Shown in pieces: positions 1-59,900 of a stretch of 64,000 nt of DNA. A program made the translations under genes and the position numbers. The notes under the pieces are model-generated. The model was given only the letters and a program-made list of their open reading frames with translations. It did not search any database and had not been told where the DNA came from. Position 1 is the stretch's first letter; every line of letters starts with the position of its first letter. This DNA is from Schmidtea polychroa (Eukaryota), in NCBI GenBank assembly GCA_044892525.1, contig CM097885.1, positions 34,226,001-34,290,000 on the forward strand, read 5' to 3'.

Positions 1-394
1 TATTTTTCGGGATTATTTCGACTCAGATGTTAATGTCAATTTTCTGATTAGTCCCTGGCTCTGATGATATCGCAGTCATCGGATGTTTTATCCGGCTTTG
101 AATATTGGAGTGTTCAATTACATCAGTTTTCACCAGTCATTCAACCTGCAATCTGTTTCCTGGGCTGATGTTGAGAATCTGAACCTTCAATACGCAGCAT
201 CGAAACAATATCCCTGCAATAGACAAAAAAAGCATATTTACATGTTTATAAATATATACAACTGCCTTTCTTTTGGAGGGTTCATCTAAAATTCTAAATA
301 TATACAAAGATATTTATACATATACATTGATATTTAAAAACCCGAGAATGACAATGCTTCTGAGATCTTAGAGCAATTTGTTATGGAGATTTTT

Positions 395-3300
395 CTAATT
401 AAGGTCTGCTAAAGTGCCAGTTTTGTGGTAGTACCACCGTCTGGCAGAATGTGTGATGTTACTTATCGTACATTCCTTCAGTAGACTGTTTATTTCTGTG
501 CGTTTAACTCCAATTTTTAAAAGGATTTCAGGAGTTGATGACGGAAAAGAACCCAAAGCTCCGATAATACAAGTGTCAAGTTCGACTTTGAAATCAGGTT
601 TGACAGCTTGTATTTCATTCTTAAGCGATTCGTATTTAATTAAATTTGAAGAGTCAACTAGTTGAAAGTTCTTGACAGAGTCGATAGGACATTTCATGTC
701 AACTAGAAAGATCTTCCTTTTCAACAAATCAGTGATCATTAAATCCACTCGTTCTTTGGAATTCGGAACAAGTGAACAGATATGATCTACTACAACAATC
801 AAGTTGGGATTTTTCATTAATCGATTAGTGATTAATTTCAGACAGTCATCATGTCGCTCTGAGGCAAGGGTCAGATGGACTTTACAAGATTGAATGACAT
901 GTGACATTGTCTCTTCCTCAGTTTGACAACGACGACAAAGTCTTTTACCACCTTTATTGTAAGGCTTCGCATTGACTGAGAGGGAGTTTGTGCGAGCTCT
1001 GTGTATGAAGTTCCAAGCAAATTCAGAGAGAGCACCACGAAAAATTGCGATGTTTATTTTAGGCGAAAGTCTGATTGCTGCAGCTATAATGTTGGAGTTA
1101 TGACTGTTCTCTCCTTTCAAAAGATAGGCATCGCAGAGTGCCATGTGCAAAACCTTAGACGTGGTTTGGCGTAAGTCAGAAGTGAGAATACACGTGCCAC
1201 GCATTGCTGTTGTAATATAAAGCGATGTTTCTTGCTTTGTTACAATAAATGCTATTGAGATTTTGTGATATTTTTCAAAAAATGCAATAGCAGTTCTGAC
1301 TCGCTGGAATCGAGTTTTCTTTCCAGAATGGCAAAGTTTGGATTGCTTACCATTGAGCCAGTCAAGACTCTCCTGTAGTGTAGGGTCTTTTATTCCGAGT
1401 CGAGGTCCAGTGACAAAGCTCAGAGAATCAGTGTTGATCTTTTTCGCAAAGTCACACTTCGATGTTAAGAGTCGAAAGAAATGTGTTATTGTCTGTGTGT
1501 GATATTCGTCAAGAAGGTCTACACAGTTTGCTCCTCCGTTTTCAGTTGAGTTGTAGAAATAACTTACTTCAGAGTGATTTGGCAAAAGTAACATTTTTCT
1601 GAGACAACTCCTCACTTGACTGGTGATGTTGACAGAACGATTACTATTGGCGCTTGGTTTTGAAAGAGCGCTAGTTTTAATTTCGCGAGTTCTAAAGGGA
1701 AAAATCAAACGTGAATGGACAAAGATCTTATAAGCTTTAAGTTTTTGCCATCCAAGTAGGTCAGAGTCGGCAAGTTTTTTCGTGTCAGATACGACCTTCT
1801 CAAGAATGTCATATGGATTCTGATCAGTCTCTTCACCAACAAGCACTCCAAGATACTGATAAAATTCATTAGGTTGTAATTTTTTGATTTTAATGCTGTC
1901 AATCGAAATTTCACTATCTATTTCAAGGTTTGGCAATTGAAGATATGCACACTTTTCAGGGCGATATTCAAAGCCAATTTCAGCTGCAGTTGCTACAGCT
2001 ATATCGGTGATTTTCTGAAGTTCTTCAACAGACTTTGTAACTAAAGCTATGTCATCTGCATATGCAAGGATCTTAATTGGAGATTTCCCAATCCTGAAAG
2101 GTCTACAATCGGATCGCGATACAGCTTCAAGTACTGGATTAATGGCCAAAGCAAACAATATCATCGATATTGGACATCCTTGTTTGACACCTTGTTTAAT
2201 AGGGATGTTTGGTGTCAGAATATTACCACAGCTGTAAAAGGTACTTGTGTTGGAATATAACATCTGGATGATGGATGCAAATTCCTCGCTTACTCCAATG
2301 AATCGGAGTAAGGACCACATGTATTCATGGGGAACACTACCAAAGGCATCTTTTATATCAAGCCAAGCAATTGCAAGAGGCTTATTTACGCTGTATTTTG
2401 AGTGTTCTAGTGCAGCAGAAAGAATTGAATTATGCTCAACACATCCATCATGTTGTGAGCCACCTTTTTGACCGATATGTAAAAGATCATTCGAGTTTAT
2501 CCAACTTGTCAGACGACTAGCTAAACAAGATGCGAAAACCTTGTAAATGACAGAAAGTAAGGAAATTGGACGCCAAGACGAGACGTCATCATATTTTCCA
2601 TCTTTATCCGGCTTAGGAGTTAGAAGTGTTTTGAAGGTCTTCCAACTGTCTGGTATGGTCTTGTTTAAAATGATTTTATTGTACAAGAAAGTAAGCAATT
2701 TACCCTCGGGATCAAGAGACAACAAGTCACGATATTGTATTCCATCAATACCAGGACTTGTGTTCTCAGCTTTCTTTAGTTCGATAAGTACTTCATCACA
2801 TGTGAGCAAAATTAAACGAAGTTTAATTTGGGAACGTTTACAGAATTCAAATATTTTATCCCATGATTTTTCTAAAGGGGTTTTGTGCATGAAATTCATG
2901 ACAATATTTTGAAATTTTGGCATCACTGTGATATTTGTATTGTTGAAGATTTTATTGACTGTTGACTTCATATCAGTCATGAATTTTGCGATTAATTTAC
3001 CCTTGTTGATTTTTGAAGGTAATTTCTTTTTATTTCCCAAGTATGGTTTATGAGTTGATTTTAATTTGTCAGGGAATTGCTCAATGATAACGTCAATGAT
3101 TTCGTTTACATTGAAATCTGTCACTCTCCTCAGTAGTTCTAATGCTCTGAGTTTACGCAATTCTAAATTTGCATTCCCCTCTTTATTTTTGTTACTGTTT
3201 GTTGGTCTTACAGTCTTTTTCCTATTAAAATCATTTACAATTGGGATAAATGAGCTGACGACATTACCAATTTCGTGTAAGTTCAAATTTGTAAGAGGTA

Positions 3301-4999
3301 AGTCTTTAGCATAGTTTTGGATGAACGCGCATATCAGGATTTGACTAACTAGACCTGATCCTCGAGTGTCATGAGGACAATTACCAGTATATAATACACG
3401 GCCAGGTGATTCTCTGATTTCATTAATTTTGTTCCTAAGAATTTTGCAGGTAGGAAGATAACTTTCATTACCACTCAGTGTCGTCGGATTTAGAAGATAG
3501 TGCTCATCAGTTTGGTAATCAATGATAAACAAGATTTCCCTTGATTTTTCTGGTGCTACGATAGTAAATATGACTTGTGCCTTGATCAACGATTCACAAT
3601 CTAAAAATTCATTTAAATATCTAGTGCAATCGTCAAGAATCGCAGTGCACATTGTAGCATTTAAAAACATGAACTTTGTGGGTAAGTTTAATTTATGAAT
3701 GTATTTTGATGTGATTTCATCATTAATTTTACAGTTAATTAAGTTTAAATTCCTGGAGATCTCGTTTGTTTGTTGTATTTTATAAGATTTAAGGGAGTCA
3801 CTGATACTTCTACGACAAACCTGATTGTCAAAAAGTAATTTTTCGACCAATTCAATGACAGCAGAAGCAAATATATCTGGGTCAACAGATGTGATGGAAA
3901 TGTGGTCGATGTTGTGGAGACTATTGAAGTTGATCTTCGTTTGAGAAAGGAAAAATTTATTCATATAGTCTGTCATGTTTTCTCCTATGCCGATTAGTCT
4001 CTCAGTTAGAACTCTGTTGTTAAAGTTGAAAATGTAACTGATTCCTAAAACGAAAGAGAAAAGATACAGACTCCAATTCGTGTCGTCTGGAATGACGCTG
4101 ATGACATGTTCTATTCCAGCAAATTGTTTAAACGTGACATTTTCCCTGATGAATATATCGTTTTGTGCAATAATATTCAATGTCAGTTCATGAGAAAGAA
4201 CAGTAATATTGCTTTTATCTTTATACCATTCACTAATCAGGTATGTGATACATGAGCTCTGTTTCTGGAGATACATCAGGTTACCATTCCTCACCTTCTT
4301 AACTCCATTCCGTTTGATTGTCTCCATGAATTTTGGAAGGCCACCCCCCGAAGTTTTGGGATCTTTTTGTTGTTGAGTAAGTTTAAACTGGTGGACCTCT
4401 TTCCTGATAGTTTCGATGAAGCAGCCCGACAAGCTCTGCCATTCTCCACAAATCATCATGGCATATGCGCAGATGTATGGCCCACAATCATAGCTATTAT
4501 TTTGATATAAAAGGTTATTATGAGGATGAAAAGTCATGGCTGCTTTAAGGTCAAACAATTCATTCAGAGCCATTGTGATCTTAAGAGCAATTGTTTTATT
4601 CGTAAAACTATGCCGATTTAGAAGGATTGGATCGATGAAGTAAGAAATTAGGGAAGATTTACAATAAACGAACAAGATCCAATGAGATTTGTTGATGTTA
4701 AGGGGGCATAATATTACTTGTGCTTTCAAGACTCTTTCCGGAATTGGGAAAGTGTCATTCTCGAGGTTAGAGCACAAAATCTCAACGATAAAACATTTGA
4801 TATACGCAAATTCTGGGTTGATGATGTGATTTTCGAGAAAATTATCAATATCATCATCAGTGAACCAGATCTTTGGGTCGCGTTTTACCATCAAATTTTT
4901 ATTATTATTTATGATGTCGTGATGTTTATTAGAATTTTTTGTGCTGTCTGCATCAGTCTCCTTAGAGATTGGGGCAGATGTTGAGACTGATGCAGGCAC
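395..4999 (-). CDS. Retrotransposon polyprotein: Ulp1/C48-like protease, reverse transcriptase, CCHC zinc knuckle, restriction-like endonuclease
   Basis: Uninterrupted 1534-codon ORF. RT motifs SPGIDG, WRPISLL, WLDIKDAFGSVPH, GVKQGCPIS, LAYADD, YQYLG; C-terminal CRRC-x7-H-x4-C, RHD, RVD..DMK..KY. The called start is GTG two codons after an in-frame TGA; the first in-frame ATG is at 4891. Confidence 0.95.
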   Translation of the reverse strand: MPASVSTSAPISKETDADSTKNSNKHHDIINNNKNLMVKRDPKIWFTDDDIDNFLENHIINPEFAYIKCFIVEILCSNLENDTFPIPERVLKAQVILCPLNINKSHWILFVYCKSSLISYFIDPILLNRHSFTNKTIALKITMALNELFDLKAAMTFHPHNNLLYQNNSYDCGPYICAYAMMICGEWQSLSGCFIETIRKEVHQFKLTQQQKDPKTSGGGLPKFMETIKRNGVKKVRNGNLMYLQKQSSCITYLISEWYKDKSNITVLSHELTLNIIAQNDIFIRENVTFKQFAGIEHVISVIPDDTNWSLYLFSFVLGISYIFNFNNRVLTERLIGIGENMTDYMNKFFLSQTKINFNSLHNIDHISITSVDPDIFASAVIELVEKLLFDNQVCRRSISDSLKSYKIQQTNEISRNLNLINCKINDEITSKYIHKLNLPTKFMFLNATMCTAILDDCTRYLNEFLDCESLIKAQVIFTIVAPEKSREILFIIDYQTDEHYLLNPTTLSGNESYLPTCKILRNKINEIRESPGRVLYTGNCPHDTRGSGLVSQILICAFIQNYAKDLPLTNLNLHEIGNVVSSFIPIVNDFNRKKTVRPTNSNKNKEGNANLELRKLRALELLRRVTDFNVNEIIDVIIEQFPDKLKSTHKPYLGNKKKLPSKINKGKLIAKFMTDMKSTVNKIFNNTNITVMPKFQNIVMNFMHKTPLEKSWDKIFEFCKRSQIKLRLILLTCDEVLIELKKAENTSPGIDGIQYRDLLSLDPEGKLLTFLYNKIILNKTIPDSWKTFKTLLTPKPDKDGKYDDVSSWRPISLLSVIYKVFASCLASRLTSWINSNDLLHIGQKGGSQHDGCVEHNSILSAALEHSKYSVNKPLAIAWLDIKDAFGSVPHEYMWSLLRFIGVSEEFASIIQMLYSNTSTFYSCGNILTPNIPIKQGVKQGCPISMILFALAINPVLEAVSRSDCRPFRIGKSPIKILAYADDIALVTKSVEELQKITDIAVATAAEIGFEYRPEKCAYLQLPNLEIDSEISIDSIKIKKLQPNEFYQYLGVLVGEETDQNPYDILEKVVSDTKKLADSDLLGWQKLKAYKIFVHSRLIFPFRTREIKTSALSKPSANSNRSVNITSQVRSCLRKMLLLPNHSEVSYFYNSTENGGANCVDLLDEYHTQTITHFFRLLTSKCDFAKKINTDSLSFVTGPRLGIKDPTLQESLDWLNGKQSKLCHSGKKTRFQRVRTAIAFFEKYHKISIAFIVTKQETSLYITTAMRGTCILTSDLRQTTSKVLHMALCDAYLLKGENSHNSNIIAAAIRLSPKINIAIFRGALSEFAWNFIHRARTNSLSVNAKPYNKGGKRLCRRCQTEEETMSHVIQSCKVHLTLASERHDDCLKLITNRLMKNPNLIVVVDHICSLVPNSKERVDLMITDLLKRKIFLVDMKCPIDSVKNFQLVDSSNLIKYESLKNEIQAVKPDFKVELDTCIIGALGSFPSSTPEILLKIGVKRTEINSLLKECTISNITHSARRWYYHKTGTLADLN
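480..937 (-). other. CCHC zinc knuckle plus PD-(D/E)xK restriction-like endonuclease
   Basis: CRRCQTEEETMSHVIQSC (884-937), RHD (~848-856), R-V-D (Asp 743-745; the usual Pro is Val), D-M-K (692-700), then KY and IIGALG as in R2/NeSL/R4 C-termini. Confidence 0.85.
1840..2800 (-). other. Non-LTR reverse transcriptase domain
   Basis: YADD encoded at 2051-2062; the other conserved RT blocks are present in the expected order. Confidence 0.95.
4385..4870 (-). other. Ulp1/SENP-like (peptidase C48, clan CE) cysteine protease domain, catalytic residues intact
   Basis: WFTDDDIDNFL start motif; ILCPLNINKSHWILF (His codon 4682-4684); YFIDP (Asp); QNNSYDCGPYIC (Gln; Cys codon 4484-4486). Confidence 0.88.
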
Positions 5000-5005
5000 G
5001 CACCT

Positions 5006-7123
5006 TCATTTAATCTTGGAGACTACTTTCCTCGTTTTCCTACTTGGTCTTGTTAGTAGGTCCTCCTGTTGATCACAACTGGAAATTGCGGGAGTAGATG
5101 GGATTATATCCAAATCAACAGGCAGCTGTCGTTTCAGAGTCGCATGTTCTTGTAGATCACCCTCCAGAATGTCGTTAATCTCTATGGGTCGAGATGGCTC
5201 TTTCACAGCTGTTTCCACCGAGTTATCTAATCCAGGTGTGTTTCTCCTCTGCTCACCATTACTTTCAATCACAGATGTCAAGAGGACATCAAGCATGTCT
5301 GTGATAATGCAAGTCATATTTGGTGTGCAAATTTTCCTACAATGCTTAGGTATACGGTAGGAGAATTTACTGTTAGATAAAAATTTCTTTTTGTCTCTAA
5401 TGATAAAAAAGAGAAATCTTTTAGCTTTTATCATCTCTTCTTCGGATGTACCTAATTCCATTTCATTAATGTTGCGGCCCAAATTCTCAAGAACCTTAAG
5501 TTGGGCAGCCTTTTGTGGACAGATTTCATCAATTTTGTCAAGAAAGGAATTGATTTTATAGATGGTTTCTGGAGAGATAATGTTGTGTATTCTATCGATC
5601 TCCTCTGACAGTTTCCACTGTCGAAGTTTTAGTAGTCTTTCCTGACAACTAGAAGAGTAGTATGAAAGACTGGGGATCATATTAATCATCTCCGGACCCC
5701 AATTTTCGATGTTGTCGCACCTTAATGTATTGCAATTTTCAATTTTAGTAATTGAGTGCATCAAAAAACAATTACGTAAATAGTTTTTAACGTACTCATC
5801 AAATGTAGGATTTGAAATGTGTATTATGGTGCCTTTTAAATTTAAATAGTTGATATAATATATTATGTCAACCAGTTTAGATGGGGAGTTTGGCTGAGTC
5901 AGAAGAGAGTTAAGTATGGGGTCATCTTCTGACATTTTAACAAAATTAACCAATCCCAGGTTGAACATTATATCAGACGCATTTTCAGAATGTGGGACTT
6001 TAGGAATTTCAGTAATTTTATTAGTTTTAATAAATTTGCCCTTCACAAACGAGATCTCATTAGGGAAATTTTTTTCTAATTTTAAATCATTAATTAATTT
6101 AGTTAATAAATCAGGATTCTTATTTATATTCTCAGAAAAATATAATTCCTGAATTTCAGGAAACGATTTATATAACTCTTTCAACTGTGATCGCGAAAGT
6201 TCTAAGGTTTGAAGACTGGTGTTCTCATTACCAGAGTCACAGCTATTGAAAAGATCTAACAAGATAAAATCACCTTCAGAAAATGTTATCTGTGATCTTA
6301 TCAGGAAATCAGGAAGTTCACGTCGTTGTTTCATTCCATTCAAGATGTTATTTGTCTGTGCCGCTCTTTGATTTATATTTTTGATGGTAGCCGTCTCTGC
6401 GAGCTTATGTGAGAGGGAATACAAAAATCTTTTAATTACAGAGGATGCAGGGATAAAACTATCAACATATTTGTTAGTTTTAACAATATTTGAATCTATT
6501 AGCGAAATTTTCAATGCACTAGAAGTCTTTATCTCGATCGGGGCTTTCGCTTTATAGTTCAATTTATGGGAAACGCATATGTTGTGGTTTCTGTAAAAGA
6601 AATGTGAAAAATCCACGATCGACAAAGGATTATCATTTCCAGATATAGAAGCTAATTCTTTATTTATTGTTTGAAATTTATTCAGAGTTTCCCGAGACTT
6701 AATTAATTTACCTAATTTTGGAAAAAGTTTTATCAAATTTATTTTCTCCGTCCTTGAAAGAGTTCTTACATAAGAATGGAAAATTGAATTTGAGTATTTT
6801 TTGTTATTAATCAAATTTTTGCTTTTAAAATATTTTGTATTTTGATACATTTTATTTTTCAAAAGGCCTTTGTTTTCTTTAGCCAAAAAATTTGAATCGT
6901 TTTTTTCAACTTTAATTATATTTAATTTTGATTTGTTTAAGTTATTTAATTTAATATTAGATAACATTTGTTCTTCAAATTTAGGTAAATAAAATTCTAC
7001 TTTTCGAATTTTATTATTAACAGTTATTTTTAATTTAGGTTCCAGATCTCCACATGCCTGAGCCTGATGTTCAAGAGAAGGGCCACTCCGGGTAACCGAA
7101 TGGGAACTCGATTTTTTTTTTTT
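5006..7123 (-). CDS. Upstream retrotransposon ORF of unknown function, in frame with the RT ORF
   Basis: 653 aa from ATG 6967. Manual translation shows the frame stays open upstream to 7123, inside the A14 tract. It ends at TGA 5006-5008, followed in frame by AGG TGC GTG CCT into the RT ORF. Confidence 0.75.
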   Translation of the reverse strand, partial: KKKKSSSHSVTRSGPSLEHQAQACGDLEPKLKITVNNKIRKVEFYLPKFEEQMLSNIKLNNLNKSKLNIIKVEKNDSNFLAKENKGLLKNKMYQNTKYFKSKNLINNKKYSNSIFHSYVRTLSRTEKINLIKLFPKLGKLIKSRETLNKFQTINKELASISGNDNPLSIVDFSHFFYRNHNICVSHKLNYKAKAPIEIKTSSALKISLIDSNIVKTNKYVDSFIPASSVIKRFLYSLSHKLAETATIKNINQRAAQTNNILNGMKQRRELPDFLIRSQITFSEGDFILLDLFNSCDSGNENTSLQTLELSRSQLKELYKSFPEIQELYFSENINKNPDLLTKLINDLKLEKNFPNEISFVKGKFIKTNKITEIPKVPHSENASDIMFNLGLVNFVKMSEDDPILNSLLTQPNSPSKLVDIIYYINYLNLKGTIIHISNPTFDEYVKNYLRNCFLMHSITKIENCNTLRCDNIENWGPEMINMIPSLSYYSSSCQERLLKLRQWKLSEEIDRIHNIISPETIYKINSFLDKIDEICPQKAAQLKVLENLGRNINEMELGTSEEEMIKAKRFLFFIIRDKKKFLSNSKFSYRIPKHCRKICTPNMTCIITDMLDVLLTSVIESNGEQRRNTPGLDNSVETAVKEPSRPIEINDILEGDLQEHATLKRQLPVDLDIIPSTPAISSCDQQEDLLTRPSRKTRKVVSKIK

Positions 7124-7610
7124 TTAAAAATAAATTTTTATTTAAATTTTTTACTTCATTTCTAGTTAAGTAATTAGTATAATTAGGATCATTATTATCA
7201 TTATATATATATGTTCTAGATCCAGCATTTAAGGGTTTATTTATAATTTTAGGTTTAATTATATTTAAAGACTTTGAATTATTTCTTAATTTAGTAATAT
7301 AAGAAATTTTTTTATTTAATTTATGTTTTTGATTTTGAAAATCATTTACTTTATTTTGATAAGAATTATATCTATCAGAATGAAATCCATTACTAAAATT
7401 GTTTTTAAATTCATTATCTTTTACAAAATTATTTAAAAGAGAAGCATTGGCATTCTCAGGTTTTAAACTGTAATCTAGATTTATATAGTTCAAAAATAAA
7501 TCAATCTTACGTTTAATTTCCAGAAATCCATCCTCAATCGAAAACATCCTCCTTGACAAGTCCAAAAGGCCATCTTCCACGGAAATCAGTCCAGAATCTA
7601 ATCTAGGCAT
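7071..7610 (-). CDS. 5'-most retrotransposon ORF segment (coiled-coil-like N-terminus, Asn/Lys-rich), probably fused to the next ORF across the A14 tract
   Basis: ORF track gives 7071..7658. ATG 7610 (MPRLDSG) is the start retained in the inverted copy. Overlaps the next open frame between 7071 and 7123. Confidence 0.6.
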   Translation of the reverse strand: MPRLDSGLISVEDGLLDLSRRMFSIEDGFLEIKRKIDLFLNYINLDYSLKPENANASLLNNFVKDNEFKNNFSNGFHSDRYNSYQNKVNDFQNQKHKLNKKISYITKLRNNSKSLNIIKPKIINKPLNAGSRTYIYNDNNDPNYTNYLTRNEVKNLNKNLFLKKKKIEFPFGYPEWPFS

Positions 7611-8044
7611 ATTTTCATTTGAACGTTGTGCATATAAATAGTTTTTGTCGATATCCATTTGTTAAGATTAACAATCAATTTGCTACTTATAGATTGAAAG
7701 TAGTTATAATAATTTCAAATTTTCGTCTGTCACAAAATATGCCTAGATTAGATTCTGGACTGATTTCCATGGAAGATGGCCTTTTGGACTTGTCAAGTAG
7801 GATGTTTTCTATTGAGGATGGATATCTGGAAATTAAACGTAAGATTGATTTATTTTTGAACTATATAAATCTAGATTACAGTTTAAAACCTGAGAATGCC
7901 AATGCTTCTCTTTTAAATAATTTTGTAAAAGATAATGAATTTAAAAACAATTTTAGTAATGGATTTCATTCTGATAGATATAATTCTTATCAAAATAAAG
8001 TAAATGATTTTCAAAATCAAAAACATAAATTAAATAAAAAAATT
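7305..8044. repeat. Long inverted repeat: arms 7305-7615 and 7734-8044 (311 bp, 4 mismatches), 118-bp spacer
   Basis: Base-by-base comparison; paired positions sum to 15349. Both arms translate as MPRLDSGLIS...HKLNKKI on opposite strands. Confidence 0.97.
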
Positions 8045-8114
8045 CATTATCATTTGAATTCAGATCAATATAATATTTCAATTTCAATATTTGACAAGTG
8101 ACATAAATTTTTTC

Positions 8115-8119
8115 AAAAA
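8115..8119 (-). terminator. RNA polymerase III terminator (T5) after tRNA-Phe, present in each unit
   Basis: Minus strand reads ...GGCA-ATTAAA-TTTTT-G: five T starting 7 nt downstream of the discriminator base. Confidence 0.75.
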
Positions 8120-8125
8120 TTTAAT

Positions 8126-8198
8126 TGCCGCGAACCGGGATCGAACCAGTGACCTTTAGATCTTCAGTCTAACGCTCTCCCAACTGAGCTATCGCGGC
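8126..8198 (-). tRNA. tRNA-Phe-GAA: tRNA-Phe(GAA), first copy of the array (repeats every 255 bp)
   Basis: GCCGCGATAGCTCAGTTGGGAGAGCGTTAGACTGAAGATCTAAAGGTCACTGGTTCGATCCCGGTTCGCGGCA: 73 nt; perfect acceptor stem GCCGCGA/TCGCGGC; anticodon loop CTGAAGA; T-loop TTCGATC; intact A and B boxes; no intron; no encoded CCA. Confidence 0.98.
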
Positions 8199-11100
8199 TT
8201 ATTTACAATAACAGACATCAGCTCATCACTGGTAAATTCCACTAGAGCTTTATTTTCAAATTTTCATCAAACACCAATCTTATTTCCAACGTTCAAATTC
8301 ATTATCATTTGAATTCAGATCAATATAATATTTCAATTTCAATATTTGACAAGTGACATAAATTTTTTCAAAAATTTAATTGCCGCGAACCGGGATCGAA
8401 CCAGTGACCTTTAGATCTTCAGTCTAACGCTCTCCCAACTGAGCTATCGCGGCTTATTTACAATAACAGACATCAGCTCATCACTGGTAAATTCCACTAG
8501 AGCTTTATTTTCAAATTTTCATCAAACACCAATCTTATTTCCAACGTTCAAATTCATTATCATTTGAATTCAGATCAATATAATATTTCAATTTCAATAT
8601 TTGACAAGTGACATAAATTTTTTCAAAAATTTAATTGCCGCGAACCGGGATCGAACCAGTGACCTTTAGATCTTCAGTCTAACGCTCTCCCAACTGAGCT
8701 ATCGCGGCTTATTTACAATAACAGACATCAGCTCATCACTGGTAAATTCCACTAGAGCTTTATTTTCAAATTTTCATCAAACACCAATCTTATTTCCAAC
8801 GTTCAAATTCATTATCATTTGAATTCAGATCAATATAATATTTCAATTTCAATATTTGACAAGTGACATAAATTTTTTCAAAAATTTAATTGCCGCGAAC
8901 CGGGATCGAACCAGTGACCTTTAGATCTTCAGTCTAACGCTCTCCCAACTGAGCTATCGCGGCTTATTTACAATAACAGACATCAGCTCATCACTGGTAA
9001 ATTCCACTAGAGCTTTATTTTCAAATTTTCATCAAACACCAATCTTATTTCCAACGTTCAAATTCATTATCATTTGAATTCAGATCAATATAATATTTCA
9101 ATTTCAATATTTGACAAGTGACATAAATTTTTTCAAAAATTTAATTGCCGCGAACCGGGATCGAACCAGTGACCTTTAGATCTTCAGTCTAACGCTCTCC
9201 CAACTGAGCTATCGCGGCTTATTTACAATAACAGACATCAGCTCATCACTGGTAAATTCCACTAGAGCTTTATTTTCAAATTTTCATCAAACACCAATCT
9301 TATTTCCAACGTTCAAATTCATTATCATTTGAATTCAGATCAATATAATATTTCAATTTCAATATTTGACAAGTGACATAAATTTTTTCAAAAATTTAAT
9401 TGCCGCGAACCGGGATCGAACCAGTGACCTTTAGATCTTCAGTCTAACGCTCTCCCAACTGAGCTATCGCGGCTTATTTACAATAACAGACATCAGCTCA
9501 TCACTGGTAAATTCCACTAGAGCTTTATTTTCAAATTTTCATCAAACACCAATCTTATTTCCAACGTTCAAATTCATTATCATTTGAATTCAGATCAATA
9601 TAATATTTCAATTTCAATATTTGACAAGTGACATAAATTTTTTCAAAAATTTAATTGCCGCGAACCGGGATCGAACCAGTGACCTTTAGATCTTCAGTCT
9701 AACGCTCTCCCAACTGAGCTATCGCGGCTTATTTACAATAACAGACATCAGCTCATCACTGGTAAATTCCACTAGAGCTTTATTTTCAAATTTTCATCAA
9801 ACACCAATCTTATTTCCAACGTTCAAATTCATTATCATTTGAATTCAGATCAATATAATATTTCAATTTCAATATTTGACAAGTGACATAAATTTTTTCA
9901 AAAATTTAATTGCCGCGAACCGGGATCGAACCAGTGACCTTTAGATCTTCAGTCTAACGCTCTCCCAACTGAGCTATCGCGGCTTATTTACAATAACAGA
10001 CATCAGCTCATCACTGGTAAATTCCACTAGAGCTTTATTTTCAAATTTTCATCAAACACCAATCTTATTTCCAACGTTCAAATTCATTATCATTTGAATT
10101 CAGATCAATATAATATTTCAATTTCAATATTTGACAAGTGACATAAATTTTTTCAAAAATTTAATTGCCGCGAACCGGGATCGAACCAGTGACCTTTAGA
10201 TCTTCAGTCTAACGCTCTCCCAACTGAGCTATCGCGGCTTATTTACAATAACAGACATCAGCTCATCACTGGTAAATTCCACTAGAGCTTTATTTTCAAA
10301 TTTTCATCAAACACCAATCTTATTTCCAACGTTCAAATTCATTATCATTTGAATTCAGATCAATATAATATTTCAATTTCAATATTTGACAAGTGACATA
10401 AATTTTTTCAAAAATTTAATTGCCGCGAACCGGGATCGAACCAGTGACCTTTAGATCTTCAGTCTAACGCTCTCCCAACTGAGCTATCGCGGCTTATTTA
10501 CAATAACAGACATCAGCTCATCACTGGTAAATTCCACTAGAGCTTTATTTTCAAATTTTCATCAAACACCAATCTTATTTCCAACGTTCAAATTCATTAT
10601 CATTTGAATTCAGATCAATATAATATTTCAATTTCAATATTTGACAAGTGACATAAATTTTTTCAAAAATTTAATTGCCGCGAACCGGGATCGAACCAGT
10701 GACCTTTAGATCTTCAGTCTAACGCTCTCCCAACTGAGCTATCGCGGCTTATTTACAATAACAGACATCAGCTCATCACTGGTAAATTCCACTAGAGCTT
10801 TATTTTCAAATTTTCATCAAACACCAATCTTATTTCCAACGTTCAAATTCATTATCATTTGAATTCAGATCAATATAATATTTCAATTTCAATATTTGAC
10901 AAGTGACATAAATTTTTTCAAAAATTTAATTGCCGCGAACCGGGATCGAACCAGTGACCTTTAGATCTTCAGTCTAACGCTCTCCCAACTGAGCTATCGC
11001 GGCTTATTTACAATAACAGACATCAGCTCATCACTGGTAAATTCCACTAGAGCTTTATTTTCAAATTTTCATCAAACACCAATCTTATTTCCAACGTTCA

Positions 11101-53100: not shown

Positions 53101-56100
53101 GCTCATCACTGGTAAATTCCACTAGAGCTTTATTTTCAAATTTTCATCAAACACCAATCTTATTTCCAACGTTCAAATTCATTATCATTTGAATTCAGAT
53201 CAATATAATATTTCAATTTCAATATTTGACAAGTGACATAAATTTTTTCAAAAATTTAATTGCCGCGAACCGGGATCGAACCAGTGACCTTTAGATCTTC
53301 AGTCTAACGCTCTCCCAACTGAGCTATCGCGGCTTATTTACAATAACAGACATCAGCTCATCACTGGTAAATTCCACTAGAGCTTTATTTTCAAATTTTC
53401 ATCAAACACCAATCTTATTTCCAACGTTCAAATTCATTATCATTTGAATTCAGATCAATATAATATTTCAATTTCAATATTTGACAAGTGACATAAATTT
53501 TTTCAAAAATTTAATTGCCGCGAACCGGGATCGAACCAGTGACCTTTAGATCTTCAGTCTAACGCTCTCCCAACTGAGCTATCGCGGCTTATTTACAATA
53601 ACAGACATCAGCTCATCACTGGTAAATTCCACTAGAGCTTTATTTTCAAATTTTCATCAAACACCAATCTTATTTCCAACGTTCAAATTCATTATCATTT
53701 GAATTCAGATCAATATAATATTTCAATTTCAATATTTGACAAGTGACATAAATTTTTTCAAAATTTAATTGCCGCGAACCGGGATCGAACCAGTGACCTT
53801 TAGATCTTCAGTCTAACGCTCTCCCAACTGAGCTATCGCGGCTTATTTACAATAACAGACATCAGCTCATCACTGGTAAATTCCACTAGAGCTTTATTTT
53901 CAAATTTTCATCAAACACCAATCTTATTTCCAACGTTCAAATTCATTATCATTTGAATTCAGATCAATATAATATTTCAATTTCAATATTTGACAAGTGA
54001 CATAAATTTTTTCAAAAATTTAATTGCCGCGAACCGGGATCGAACCAGTGACCTTTAGATCTTCAGTCTAACGCTCTCCCAACTGAGCTATCGCGGCTTA
54101 TTTACAATAACAGACATCAGCTCATCACTGGTAAATTCCACTAGAGCTTTATTTTCAAATTTTCATCAAACACCAATCTTATTTCCAACGTTCAAATTCA
54201 TTATCATTTGAATTCAGATCAATATAATATTTCAATTTCAATATTTGACAAGTGACATAAATTTTTTCAAAAATTTAATTGCCGCGAACCGGGATCGAAC
54301 CAGTGACCTTTAGATCTTCAGTCTAACGCTCTCCCAACTGAGCTATCGCGGCTTATTTACAATAACAGACATCAGCTCATCACTGGTAAATTCCACTAGA
54401 GCTTTATTTTCAAATTTTCATCAAACACCAATCTTATTTCCAACGTTCAAATTCATTATCATTTGAATTCAGATCAATATAATATTTCAATTTCAATATT
54501 TGACAAGTGACATAAATTTTTTCAAAAATTTAATTGCCGCGAACCGGGATCGAACCAGTGACCTTTAGATCTTCAGTCTAACGCTCTCCCAACTGAGCTA
54601 TCGCGGCTTATTTACAATAACAGACATCAGCTCATCACTGGTAAATTCCACTAGAGCTTTATTTTCAAATTTTCATCAAACACCAATCTTATTTCAACGT
54701 TCAAATTTCATTAGCATTTGAATTCAGATCAATATAATATTTCAATTTCAATAGTTGACAAGTGAATCCAAGTGACATAAATTTTTTCAAAAATTTAATT
54801 GCCGCGAACCGGGATCGAACCAGTGACCTTTAGATCTTCAGTCTAACGCTCTCCCAACTGAGCTATCGCGGCTTATTTACAATAACAGACATCAGCTCAT
54901 CACTGGTAAATTCCACTAGAGCTTTATTTTCAAATTTTCATCAAACACCAATCTTATTTCCAACGTTCAAATTCATTATCATTTGAATTCAGATCAATAT
55001 AATATTTCAATTTCAATATTTGACAAGTGACATAAATTTTTTCAAAAATTTAATTGCCGCGAACCGGGATCGAACCAGTGACCTTTAGATCTTCAGTCTA
55101 ACGCTCTCCCAACTGAGCTATCGCGGCTTATTTACAATAACAGACATCAGCTCATCACTGGTAAATTCCACTAGAGCTTTATTTCAAATTTTCATCAAAC
55201 ACCAATCTTATTTCCAACGTTCAAATTCATTATCATTTGAATTCAGATCAATATAATATTTCAATTTCAATATTTGACAAGTGACATAAATTTTTTCAAA
55301 AATTTAATTGCCGCGAACCGGGATCGAACCAGTGACCTTTAGATCTTCAGTCTAACGCTCTCCCAACTGAGCTATCGCGGCTTATTTACAATAACAGACA
55401 TCAGCTCATCACTGGTAAATTCCACTAGAGCTTTATTTTCAAATTTTCATCAAACACCAATCTTATTTCCAACGTTCAAATTCATTATCATTTGAATTCA
55501 GATCAATATAATATTTCAATTCAATATTTGACAAGTGACATAAATTTTTTCAAAAATTTAATTGCCGCGAACCGGGATCGAACCAGTGACCTTTAGATCT
55601 TCAGTCTAACGCTCTCCCAACTGAGCTATCGCGGCTTATTTACAATAACAGACATCAGCTCATCACTGGTAAATTCCACTAGAGCTTTATTTTCAAATTT
55701 TCATCAAACACCAATCTTATTTCCAACGTTCAAATTCATTATCATTTGAATTCAGATCAATATAATATTTCAATTTCAATATTTGACAAGTGACATAAAT
55801 TTTTTCAAAAATTTAATTGCCGCGAACCGGGATCGAACCAGTGACCTTTAGATCTTCAGTCTAACGCTCTCCCAACTGAGCTATCGCGGCTTATTTACAA
55901 TAACAGACATCAGCTCATCACTGGTAAATTCCACTAGAGCTTTATTTTCAAATTTTCATCAAACACCCAATCTTATTTCCAACGTTCAAATTCATTATCA
56001 TTTGAATTCAGATCAATATAATATTTCAATTTCAATATTTGACAAGTGACATAAATTTTTTCAAAAATTTAATTGCCGCGAACCGGGATCGAACCAGTGA

Positions 56101-56852
56101 CCTTTAGATCTTCAGTCTAACGCTCTCCCAACTGAGCTATCGCGGCTTATTTACAATAACAGACATCAGCTCATCACTGTTAAATTCCACTAGAGCTTAT
56201 TTTCAAATTTTCATCAAACACCCAATCTTATTTCCAACGTTCAAAATTCATTATCATTTGAATTCAGATCAATATAATATTTCAATTTCAATATTTGACA
56301 AGTGACATAATTTTTTTCAAAAATTTAATTGCCGCGAACCGGGATCGAACCAGTGACCTTTAGATCTTCAGTCTAACGCTCTCCGCCAAACTGAGCTATC
56401 GCGGCTGATTTACAAATACAAGACATCAGCTCATCACTGGTAAATTCCACTAGAGCTTTATTTTCAAATTTTCATCAAACACCAATCTTATTTCCAACGT
56501 TCAATTCATTATCATTTGAATTCAGATCAATATAATATTTCAATTTCAATATTTTGACAAGTGACATAAATTTTTTCAAAAATTTAATTGCCGCGAACCG
56601 GGATCCGAACCAGTGACCTTTAGATCTTCCAGGTCTAACGCTCTCCCCAACTGAGCTATCGCGGCATGTAGTTTACAATAACAGACATCAGCTCCTCACT
56701 GGTAATTTCCACTAGAGCTTATTTTTCAAATTTTACATCAACACCATCTTATTTCCAACGTTACACAATTCCATTATCATTTGAATTCAGATCAATATAA
56801 TATTTCACTTTCAATATTTTGGCAGGTGACATAAATTTTTTCAAAATTTAAT

Positions 56853-56908
56853 TGCCGCGAAACCTTTAGATCTTCAGTCTAACGCTCTCCCAACTGAGCT
56901 ATCGCGGC
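56853..56908 (-). pseudogene. tRNA-Phe copy lacking the T-arm/B-box (17-bp deletion); may be an assembly join artefact
   Basis: Reads gccgcgaa|acctttaga instead of gccgcgaa-ccgggatcgaaccagtg-acctttaga; sits at the abrupt end of an error-rich tract. Confidence 0.5.
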
Positions 56909-59900
56909 TTATTTACAATAACAGACATCAGCTCATCACTGGTAAATTCCACTAGAGCTTTATTTTCAAATTTTCATCAAACACCAATCTTATTTCCAAC
57001 GTTCAAATTCATTATCATTTGAATTCAGATCAATATAATATTTCAATTTCAATATTTGACAAGTGACATAAATTTTTTCAAAAATTTAATTGCCGCGAAC
57101 CGGGATCGAACCAGTGACCTTTAGATCTTCAGTCTAACGCTCTCCCAACTGAGCTATCGCGGCTTATTTACAATAACAGACATCAGCTCATCACTGGTAA
57201 ATTCCACTAGAGCTTTATTTTCAAATTTTCATCAAACACCAATCTTATTTCCAACGTTCAAATTCATTATCATTTGAATTCAGATCAATATAATATTTCA
57301 ATTTCAATATTTGACAAGTGACATAAATTTTTTCAAAAATTTAATTGCCGCGAACCGGGATCGAACCAGTGACCTTTAGATCTTCAGTCTAACGCTCTCC
57401 CAACTGAGCTATCGCGGCTTATTTACAATAACAGACATCAGCTCATCACTGGTAAATTCCACTAGAGCTTTATTTTCAAATTTTCATCAAACACCAATCT
57501 TATTTCCAACGTTCAAATTCATTATCATTTGAATTCAGATCAATATAATATTTCAATTTCAATATTTGACAAGTGACATAAATTTTTTCAAAAATTTAAT
57601 TGCCGCGAACCGGGATCGAACCAGTGACCTTTAGATCTTCAGTCTAACGCTCTCCCAACTGAGCTATCGCGGCTTATTTACAATAACAGACATCAGCTCA
57701 TCACTGGTAAATTCCACTAGAGCTTTATTTTCAAATTTTCATCAAACACCAATCTTATTTCCAACGTTCAAATTCATTATCATTTGAATTCAGATCAATA
57801 TAATATTTCAATTTCAATATTTGACAAGTGACATAAATTTTTTCAAAAATTTAATTGCCGCGAACCGGGATCGAACCAGTGACCTTTAGATCTTCAGTCT
57901 AACGCTCTCCCAACTGAGCTATCGCGGCTTATTTACAATAACAGACATCAGCTCATCACTGGTAAATTCCACTAGAGCTTTATTTTCAAATTTTCATCAA
58001 ACACCAATCTTATTTCCAACGTTCAAATTCATTATCATTTGAATTCAGATCAATATAATATTTCAATTTCAATATTTGACAAGTGACATAAATTTTTTCA
58101 AAAATTTAATTGCCGCGAACCGGGATCGAACCAGTGACCTTTAGATCTTCAGTCTAACGCTCTCCCAACTGAGCTATCGCGGCTTATTTACAATAACAGA
58201 CATCAGCTCATCACTGGTAAATTCCACTAGAGCTTTATTTTCAAATTTTCATCAAACACCAATCTTATTTCCAACGTTCAAATTCATTATCATTTGAATT
58301 CAGATCAATATAATATTTCAATTTCAATATTTGACAAGTGACATAAATTTTTTCAAAAATTTAATTGCCGCGAACCGGGATCGAACCAGTGACCTTTAGA
58401 TCTTCAGTCTAACGCTCTCCCAACTGAGCTATCGCGGCTTATTTACAATAACAGACATCAGCTCATCACTGGTAAATTCCACTAGAGCTTTATTTTCAAA
58501 TTTTCATCAAACACCAATCTTATTTCCAACGTTCAAATTCATTATCATTTGAATTCAGATCAATATAATATTTCAATTTCAATATTTGACAAGTGACATA
58601 AATTTTTTCAAAAATTTAATTGCCGCGAACCGGGATCGAACCAGTGACCTTTAGATCTTCAGTCTAACGCTCTCCCAACTGAGCTATCGCGGCTTATTTA
58701 CAATAACAGACATCAGCTCATCACTGGTAAATTCCACTAGAGCTTTATTTTCAAATTTTCATCAAACACCAATCTTATTTCCAACGTTCAAATTCATTAT
58801 CATTTGAATTCAGATCAATATAATATTTCAATTTCAATATTTGACAAGTGACATAAATTTTTTCAAAAATTTAATTGCCGCGAACCGGGATCGAACCAGT
58901 GACCTTTAGATCTTCAGTCTAACGCTCTCCCAACTGAGCTATCGCGGCTTATTTACAATAACAGACATCAGCTCATCACTGGTAAATTCCACTAGAGCTT
59001 TATTTTCAAATTTTCATCAAACACCAATCTTATTTCCAACGTTCAAATTCATTATCATTTGAATTCAGATCAATATAATATTTCAATTTCAATATTTGAC
59101 AAGTGACATAAATTTTTTCAAAAATTTAATTGCCGCGAACCGGGATCGAACCAGTGACCTTTAGATCTTCAGTCTAACGCTCTCCCAACTGAGCTATCGC
59201 GGCTTATTTACAATAACAGACATCAGCTCATCACTGGTAAATTCCACTAGAGCTTTATTTTCAAATTTTCATCAAACACCAATCTTATTTCCAACGTTCA
59301 AATTCATTATCATTTGAATTCAGATCAATATAATATTTCAATTTCAATATTTGACAAGTGACATAAATTTTTTCAAAAATTTAATTGCCGCGAACCGGGA
59401 TCGAACCAGTGACCTTTAGATCTTCAGTCTAACGCTCTCCCAACTGAGCTATCGCGGCTTATTTACAATAACAGACATCAGCTCATCACTGGTAAATTCC
59501 ACTAGAGCTTTATTTTCAAATTTTCATCAAACACCAATCTTATTTCCAACGTTCAAATTCATTATCATTTGAATTCAGATCAATATAATATTTCAATTTC
59601 AATATTTGACAAGTGACATAAATTTTTTCAAAAATTTAATTGCCGCGAACCGGGATCGAACCAGTGACCTTTAGATCTTCAGTCTAACGCTCTCCCAACT
59701 GAGCTATCGCGGCTTATTTACAATAACAGACATCAGCTCATCACTGGTAAATTCCACTAGAGCTTTATTTTCAAATTTTCATCAAACACCAATCTTATTT
59801 CCAACGTTCAAATTCATTATCATTTGAATTCAGATCAATATAATATTTCAATTTCAATATTTGACAAGTGACATAAATTTTTTCAAAAATTTAATTGCCG

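Follow-up and report, generated by a model that had tools for sequence, protein, structure and literature searches.

The 64,000-nucleotide stretch of Schmidtea polychroa DNA analyzed here (the window; positions 34,226,001 to 34,290,000 of contig CM097885.1) is shared by a retrotransposon without long terminal repeats (non-LTR) on the minus strand (1-8044) and a near-perfect tandem array of tRNA-Phe(GAA) genes, likewise on the minus strand (8040-64000). The array has a 255-bp unit, repeated 219.4 times with 99% matches in a tandem-repeat search; it includes 204 exact units, received 218 minus-strand tRNA calls from ARAGORN, is free of insertions within the window and runs on to about 111,200 in window numbering. 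We consider it very probable that the retrotransposon is a young member of the R5/LIN lineage of the NeSL clade, likely the counterpart of LIN25_SM, that its insertions end between nucleotides 4 and 5 in eight or more kinds of tRNA gene, and that its contact with the array at 8040 is likely a 5′ scar.

Read in its own sense, the element starts with a short 5′ untranslated region (UTR; 7659-7707), the family 5′ end near 7707 (..ACTACTTTCAATC) being common to copies in Val, Ser, Tyr and other arrays. The first open reading frame (ORF1; 5009-7658) encodes about 880 amino acids with no known domain. It has 882 codons and is intact in L041 and L047 (such labels denote loci of the S. polychroa genome; C1 and the like are contigs of the assembly G000), whereas in the window copy the frame is shifted at a T14 run (7112-7125) that is T7 in four Val-array copies. 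Pfam gave no match for a 705-aa part of ORF1 and only a below-cut-off match for a 196-aa part; no homologue was found among 8000 scored candidates, nor was there an Atlas match. ORF2 (395-5005; 1536 codons from stop to stop, first ATG at codon 39) opens with three tandem Ulp1-like repeats (3206-4873), the first being a cysteine protease domain (4361-4873; Pfam Peptidase_C48, E=1.7e-5) with H108, Q168 and C174 intact and conserved in 6/6 families. Repeats 2 and 3 (3206-4333) have lost the catalytic His and Cys and were recognized by hhalign, at probabilities of 97% between repeats 1 and 3, 92% between 2 and 3 and 25% between 1 and 2. The reverse transcriptase (RT) core follows (1847-2614; YADD at aa 982; Pfam RVT_1, E=1.2e-26), and then a CCHC zinc knuckle (CRRC..H..C from aa 1357) with the motifs of a restriction-like endonuclease (RLE) of the PD-(D/E)xK type (RHD; R-V-D at 1419; D-x-K at 1436), all within 680-940 and conserved in six families.

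This is thus a real minus-strand element of the R2 (RLE) group. It has the RT-CCHC-RLE core of R2Bm and avian R2 (PDB 9nl2, 9dou); R2 proteins are the top PDB matches of ORF2 (E=1e-48), and the CCHC/RLE region aligned to domain 2 of 9nl2 with a weak score. It also has the precise 3′ junction in a multicopy target and the variable 5′ junction of that group. R2 has a single 28S target site and bears N-terminal zinc fingers and a Myb domain; Pfam detected neither of these in the proteins of this element. R5 reportedly has two ORFs. Clades of the R2 group are described as having a single ORF (PMC3636483), a feature absent here, the two in-frame ORFs being divided by a TGA in 11/11 copies; that criterion may not bind the R5/LIN lineage. 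Two features typical of the NeSL clade were present, namely the Ulp1-like protease N-terminal to the RT and target-site deletion without duplication (26 of 30 5′ ends scored). Database relatives carrying RT and C48 domains were found; a metagenome scan yielded 22 loci at 22-38% identity, too distant. In these respects the description of the element in the first-pass annotation, as RLE-bearing, NeSL-like, site-specific and tied to tRNA arrays, was borne out.

Because the element lies on the minus strand, 8040 is its 5′ side. For elements that move through target-primed reverse transcription (TPRT) it is the 3′ junction that marks the nick, as established for R2 (PMC11371274). The 3′ end is not at 395, where the first-pass annotation had begun the element: the 3′ UTR occupies 1-394 and extends 129 bases past the left window edge to G000:C1:34225872, where its terminal ...AATAAATGTTTTAA joins a tRNA-Phe gene after nucleotide 4 (junction with nucleotide 5 at 34225871/72). 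The Rfam tRNA match at the 3′ junction of L001 covers model positions 7-64. Among the 30 closest copies (the best 30 of 40 scored, from 1027 candidates), 28 end at nucleotide 4/5 in seven kinds of tRNA gene (His 8, Ser-TGA 6, Val 4, Glu 4, Phe 3, Ser-GCT 2 and Met 1, the Glu-gene copies being L013, L014, L018 and L019), and the remaining two at tRNA-like sequence that Rfam did not call. A genome search with the terminal 18-mer returned 135 matches, compared with 15 for a control. Fifty-one matches were examined, drawn from the first 30 in the list and from 20 stretches that each represented one cluster: 27 are true ends of the family, 3 belong to a D-loop family and 21 are due to chance. Twenty-six of the true ends lie at tRNA nucleotide 5, adding tRNA-Tyr (L136-L140; these genes are misnamed Asn by ARAGORN because of their intron), and one at tRNA-like sequence. 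No 3′ end was found in a spacer, either among the 30 close copies or among the 27 true ends of the 18-mer census. The family's 3′ ends therefore sit at one fixed position inside at least eight kinds of tRNA gene. Since nucleotides 1-4 are lost, the struck gene is not left intact. One side observation concerns L173 (G000:C2:158.41 Mb), an internally deleted copy lacking about 3.4 kb, including the RT, that is repeated several times in a Ser-TGA array.

The first-pass annotation had taken the spacer position CAACGTTC^AAAT as the target, a safe harbor in which the tRNA genes stay intact. Element-derived DNA does meet the array there, at 8040-8044, with 86 of the 182 bases of the Phe spacer kept. 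However, the adjoining DNA (7734-8044) is not the normal end of the element: it is an inverted copy of the element's own 7299-7615, 98% complementary to it. Delimited more closely, the inverted segment is a plus-strand copy of 7305-7613 at 7736-8044, with a 2-nt overlap at its start and a 5-nt microhomology at its far end, AAATT (8040-8044) being common to the inverted copy and the Phe spacer. In element sense, the order is Phe spacer, antisense 7305-7613, 28 bases of tRNA-Val array spacer (7708-7735) and the family 5′ end near 7707. The 28 bases match the Val spacer exactly, match five other spacers over 12 nt at most, and occur nowhere in the Phe array, so they are likely a 5′ transduction from a donor copy in a Val array. 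A 12-nt match of 7617-7628 to reversed spacer was dismissed as chance, since it lies inside ORF1 and is also present in Met- and Ser-array copies. A ribozyme-like folded 5′ end was rejected as well, as the folding of 7600-7735, the only stretch folded, gave z=+0.5.

The zebrafish element Dewa belongs to the APE/Tx1 clade. In the spacer of tRNA-Leu arrays, Dewa provides a true case of spacer targeting (PMC3706591), and a reading of this kind gains from the fact that the junction at CAACGTTC^AAAT exists, is assembled at four places (the window, G000:C337 and twice in C103) and is joined by nearly all other 5′ ends in falling within spacers. Nevertheless, the 3′-junction census already refutes it, with 0/30 and 0/27 ends in spacer. 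Recurrence at that position is confined to 4 of the 30 5′ ends examined, and those four are 100% identical over 616 nt and share the T14 run, indicating descent from a single event; moreover, what lies at the junction is a piece from the interior of the element in inverted orientation. The 26 scorable 5′ ends all lack spacer bases, from 5 to 268 of them, at varied positions in various arrays, and in none of the 30 were tRNA nucleotides 1-4 kept or the target duplicated (the four unscored ends were judged by eye for duplication). A recurrent single spacer site next to an intact tRNA gene, as in Dewa, was thus found in neither the 3′ nor the 5′ census, and we regard spacer targeting as extremely improbable. 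The window insertion itself lost about 96-101 spacer bases in addition to nucleotides 1-4, in line with the target deletions reported for all described NeSL elements (PMC3636483).

The junction at 8040 is likely a 5′ repair scar and not a target. Its geometry is known from R2 insertions, in which the end of the cDNA primes on itself (snap-back) before joining (PMC11371274). One of the four places, L163, internal in C103, has Phe array on both sides and is identical to the window over 4456-8040, including the T14 frameshift, but shows 36 differences from the window copy over the 3′ 4.6 kb. These features suggest a single old event, propagated by recombination or conversion, and not recurrent targeting. 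An artefact of assembly or of chimeric reads is another conceivable source of the inversion and of its join to the spacer: long-read data do contain fold-back chimeras, two of the four places are at contig starts and may be redundant contigs, and the array includes a gap as well as a patch, near 56.3-57.1 kb, that is rich in errors. Yet the two arms differ at 4 of 309 bases, and L163 is flanked by array on both sides and carries a different 3′ half. Assembly at four places, one of them with 36 differences, makes a one-off assembly error unlikely, and we give an artefact only a slight chance.

Other copies indicate movement between arrays as well. Over 2.1 kb, the identity among those in Phe, Val, Ser-TGA, Met and Glu arrays, which lie on three chromosomes, is 98.9-99.5%. 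Foreign Val spacer was found at the 5′ ends of two Phe-array copies (28 nt in the window, 47 nt in L055), the 5′ end of L169 has 76 nt of Ser-TGA spacer followed by 24 nt of Phe spacer, and L210 and L213 have 26 nt of Ser-GCT spacer. From these remnants we infer that transcription begins within the spacer upstream, which the transcript then takes along to its next insertion site. L210 and L213 are also chimeras, with the 5′ part of this family and a 3′ part of family B (described below), and have an ORF2 of 1888 codons with an extra protease-like segment.

A possible course of integration can be outlined. The RLE, recognizing N-G-R-T-N-G and probably the A-box behind it, would place its nick between nucleotides 4 and 5 of the tRNA gene on the non-transcribed-sense strand, and the RT would copy the RNA from the nick (TPRT). 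As this RNA would begin in the upstream spacer of the donor's array, the cDNA would end in spacer sequence. In an array of the same kind that end could anneal to the resident spacer; in a foreign array it would be joined by microhomology, with deletion of upstream DNA. In the window copy, with a Val-array donor, the cDNA end may have turned back to copy about 300 nt of its own sequence before being joined to the Phe spacer at AAATT, a joining that would have deleted about 100 bp plus tRNA nucleotides 1-4. Each insertion would destroy one gene, a loss that arrays of hundreds of copies could absorb.

Planarian elements inserted in tRNA genes were reported in 2015 by Kojima and Jurka, namely LIN15_SM in tRNA-Arg and LIN25_SM in tRNA-Glu, the latter from Schmidtea mediterranea and assigned to the R5/LIN lineage of the NeSL clade (PMC4640811); this was the one relevant paper among the literature matches listed. 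The first-pass annotation was right in kind in allowing that related tRNA-array families might already be catalogued, as the targeting of tRNA genes by planarian LIN elements was published in that year; the idea of a new spacer safe harbor is false. LIN25_SM ends at TCCC^TGATGG in tRNA-Glu, that is, at nucleotide 4/5 (S6 Fig of PMC4640811), and the same junction is seen for it in Glu-TTC, Glu-CTC, Tyr and a tRNA-like stretch of Polinton-4. The last 31 bases of its tail agree with ours at 27 positions (compared by eye in that figure), and neither element has a poly(A). To judge from these likenesses, our element is likely the counterpart and a close relative of LIN25_SM. The text of that paper describes LIN25_SM as tRNA-Glu-specific, with 5′ boundaries unshown (PMC4640811), whereas the window family occupies at least eight isotypes and has 5′ deletions, transduced spacers, a snap-back junction and two ORFs divided by an in-frame TGA with a stem-loop. 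LIN15_SM is also an RLE element within tRNA genes of planarian arrays but, unlike the window family, inserts in the D-loop (PMC4640811). NeSL-1 and Utopia-1_TSP of the NeSL clade share with our element the Ulp1-like protease before RT and RLE (PMC4640811) and the target-site deletions (PMC3636483). They target spliced-leader or U2 genes instead of tRNA genes (PMC4640811), and the window family differs further in its three Ulp1-like repeats and separate ORF1. The precise 3′ junctions, variable 5′ junctions and snap-back class are shared with R2 (PMC11371274). Dewa and Dada-t likewise occupy multicopy tRNA arrays, and some Dada target sites lie in the A-box; Dada elements, however, are DNA transposons with target duplications, each family on its own tRNA (PMC3706591).

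Several observations weigh against the interpretation given above. One copy, L211, ends 2 nt upstream of the usual register, at nucleotide 3 of tRNA-Ala(TGC), a gene in which the motif NGATG also lies 2 nt earlier. Copies within one array are not independent, as the mosaic L163 illustrates, so that junction counts overstate the number of insertions; a safer figure is eight isotypes at the same register plus three other targets, or about 8-11 distinct targets. In ORF1, Met and Ser copies and not Val copies are the nearest to the window copy, which makes the copies mosaics with a donor history that is not simple and weakens the case for a simple descent from a Val donor. At two of the four positions where the arms of the inversion differ, the outer arm agrees with other copies, so that the inversion may owe something to a second template or to conversion at a later time. 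Finally, the proposed orthology with LIN25_SM rests on the tail, site and domain plan and not on the LIN25_SM consensus, and the tail of a sister family, A2, resembles LIN25 equally well.

The TGA between ORF1 and ORF2 (5006-5008) is in frame in all 11 copies examined and is present in every sister-family copy inspected, which rules out a decay mutation. A splice donor past it (AAG/GTGCGT) was also ruled out, being missing in family B. A stem-loop, a candidate readthrough signal, begins 2 nt past the TGA (4941-5003, minus strand; −29.6 kcal/mol, z=−6.0), and 0 of 200 shuffles were as good; in a family-B copy z was −2.3. Of the codons of the stem arms, 8/8 are invariant across six families with 54-81% ORF2 identity, compared with 5/177 four-fold and 35/239 two-fold codons elsewhere. 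Among nine distinct rows no pair had changed on both sides; the stem is supported by conservation and stability, not by covariation, and the six families are not independent.

ORF2 is probably made by occasional UGA readthrough aided by this stem-loop, an account that we prefer, with some reserve, over re-initiation at the conserved GUG in the stem or at a later AUG. Re-initiation would agree with the invariance of GTG at codon 3, with the start placed by gene callers at the GTG residue in 10 of the 11 closest database relatives, and with an ATG in another frame that overlaps the TGA. Yet the stop is invariably TGA and invariably in frame, the stem starts 2 nt after it, and the overlapping ATG opens only 15 codons, as read from the sequence. 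The first AUG past the TGA is met only at codons 37-317 across families, in family C beyond the protease domain. Re-initiation thus seems the doubtful alternative. Readthrough in an R2-group element was the subject of no title among the literature matches listed, the R5 and NeSL-1 papers and Repbase reports being outside that search, and a recoding signal made of UGA and a downstream stem-loop was not found for any non-LTR retrotransposon in the literature search. R5/NeSL-1 papers or Repbase reports may already describe two ORFs, the stem-loop or a wider target range.

A quick tree of 79 RT sequences, from a tree search short of completion and with no named NeSL-1, R5 or LIN reference among them, groups the family with A2 (90% RT identity) and then with D (84%; Shimodaira-Hasegawa-like approximate likelihood ratio test, SH-aLRT, 100), the D-loop families B and C being placed apart. 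A2 ends at nucleotide 5/6 of Leu and Gln genes, at nucleotide 15 of Ala-AGC (CATGG) and in tRNA-like cassettes; all 39 ends examined, of 70 matches, lie in tRNA or tRNA-like sequence. Its loci (L204-L209, L212 and L294-L332) are in Leu-TAA, Gln-TTG and Ala-AGC arrays, the Ala-AGC site lying about 10 nt downstream, at the CATGG of the D-loop. Family D ends at about nucleotide 21/22 of 5S rRNA in 29 of 30 ends examined (of 150 matches). Mutsu is a 5S-targeting element among the literature matches listed, and the available part of PMC10946416 names no 5S-targeting RLE element; a literature search on planarian tRNA arrays found nothing.

These targets are relevant to how specificity is achieved. 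Rather than reading the A-box in a fixed register, the element may be tethered to genes of RNA polymerase III (Pol III), through TFIIIC/TFIIIB or open chromatin, and depend on a short nuclease motif for the exact site. The 6-base motif alone has, by a rough estimate, some 3 million occurrences in the genome, and still the ends fall within genes of the Pol III type. The register shifts with the motif (nucleotide 3 in Ala-TGC; 5/6 for A2 in Leu and Gln, but 15 in Ala-AGC), the uniform placement of the A2 ends and the occurrence of D in 5S genes fit the same idea, and no domain of the zinc-finger or Myb kind was detected by Pfam. Such a register, tied to a short motif and combined with targets that remain genes of the Pol III type, leaves room for tethering. 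On the other hand, an extended A-box-like motif could by our estimate give much specificity on its own, purifying selection and array amplification would likewise enrich copies in arrays, known RLE elements read DNA directly (PMC3706591), and LIN25_SM has off-target sites with only NGAT (S6 Fig of PMC4640811). Direct reading of an extended A-box together with selection is the simpler account, and tethering appears possible but on the unlikely side. Equally tentative is a broader scenario, in which the planarian R5/LIN lineage radiated over Pol III genes (tRNA isotypes at two to three registers, tRNA-like cassettes and 5S) by a tether plus a short motif, with 5′ spacer pieces recording the hops and the RT produced by stem-loop-driven, programmed UGA readthrough.

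The series of targets, from at least eight tRNA isotypes through shifted registers in two Ala genes to 5S in a sister with 84% RT identity, makes target change or loosening in RLE elements testable, and how such an element shifts its target is relevant to R2-based gene insertion tools. The window copy shows a snap-back junction that became fixed in nature and resembles those observed in R2 experiments, transduced spacers point to the place where transcription starts, and the sharply conserved stem-loop after the in-frame UGA would allow recoding in a non-LTR element to be tested simply, with a reporter.

Some further observations were made on the related families. Family D loci comprise L234, L235 and L264-L293 (e.g., G000:C1:136.7-136.8 Mb, C1:86.6 Mb and C3:114.5-114.8 Mb); on C3, C230 and C283 its ends follow one another at intervals of 0.7-2.2 kb, which suggests numerous short, truncated copies. 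Family C (L228-L231), in which the first AUG after the TGA is codon 317, occupies Asp arrays and mixed Gly/Asp arrays, with its insertions in tRNA-Asp(GTC) lying just ahead of the GG of the D-loop. The LIN15-like family B (L171, L236, L237, L049:5830-10000 and L213), with an ORF2 54-55% identical to that of the window family, occupies the D-loop of Arg-ACG, Arg-TCT, Ile, His and Cys genes, and co-occupies the His array with the window family. Several families have inserted into degenerate tRNA-like cassettes (L003, L024, L145, L229, L232, L233, L239, L240 and L325-L327); the cassettes occur repeatedly, at scattered sites, and have kept motifs resembling the A- and B-boxes.

Around the window, two further copies (G000:C1:34213783-34219756 and C1:34337478-34344025) flank the Phe array, which in full spans about 103 kb with 402 tRNA calls. 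These two and the window copy all lie at edges of the array, none being found in its interior. The patch at 53500-57100, error-rich near 56.3-57.1 kb, has indels and one unit miscalled as tRNA-Ser, and is probably a low-quality consensus; beyond the window, a run of N lies in the array near G000:C1:34304500.

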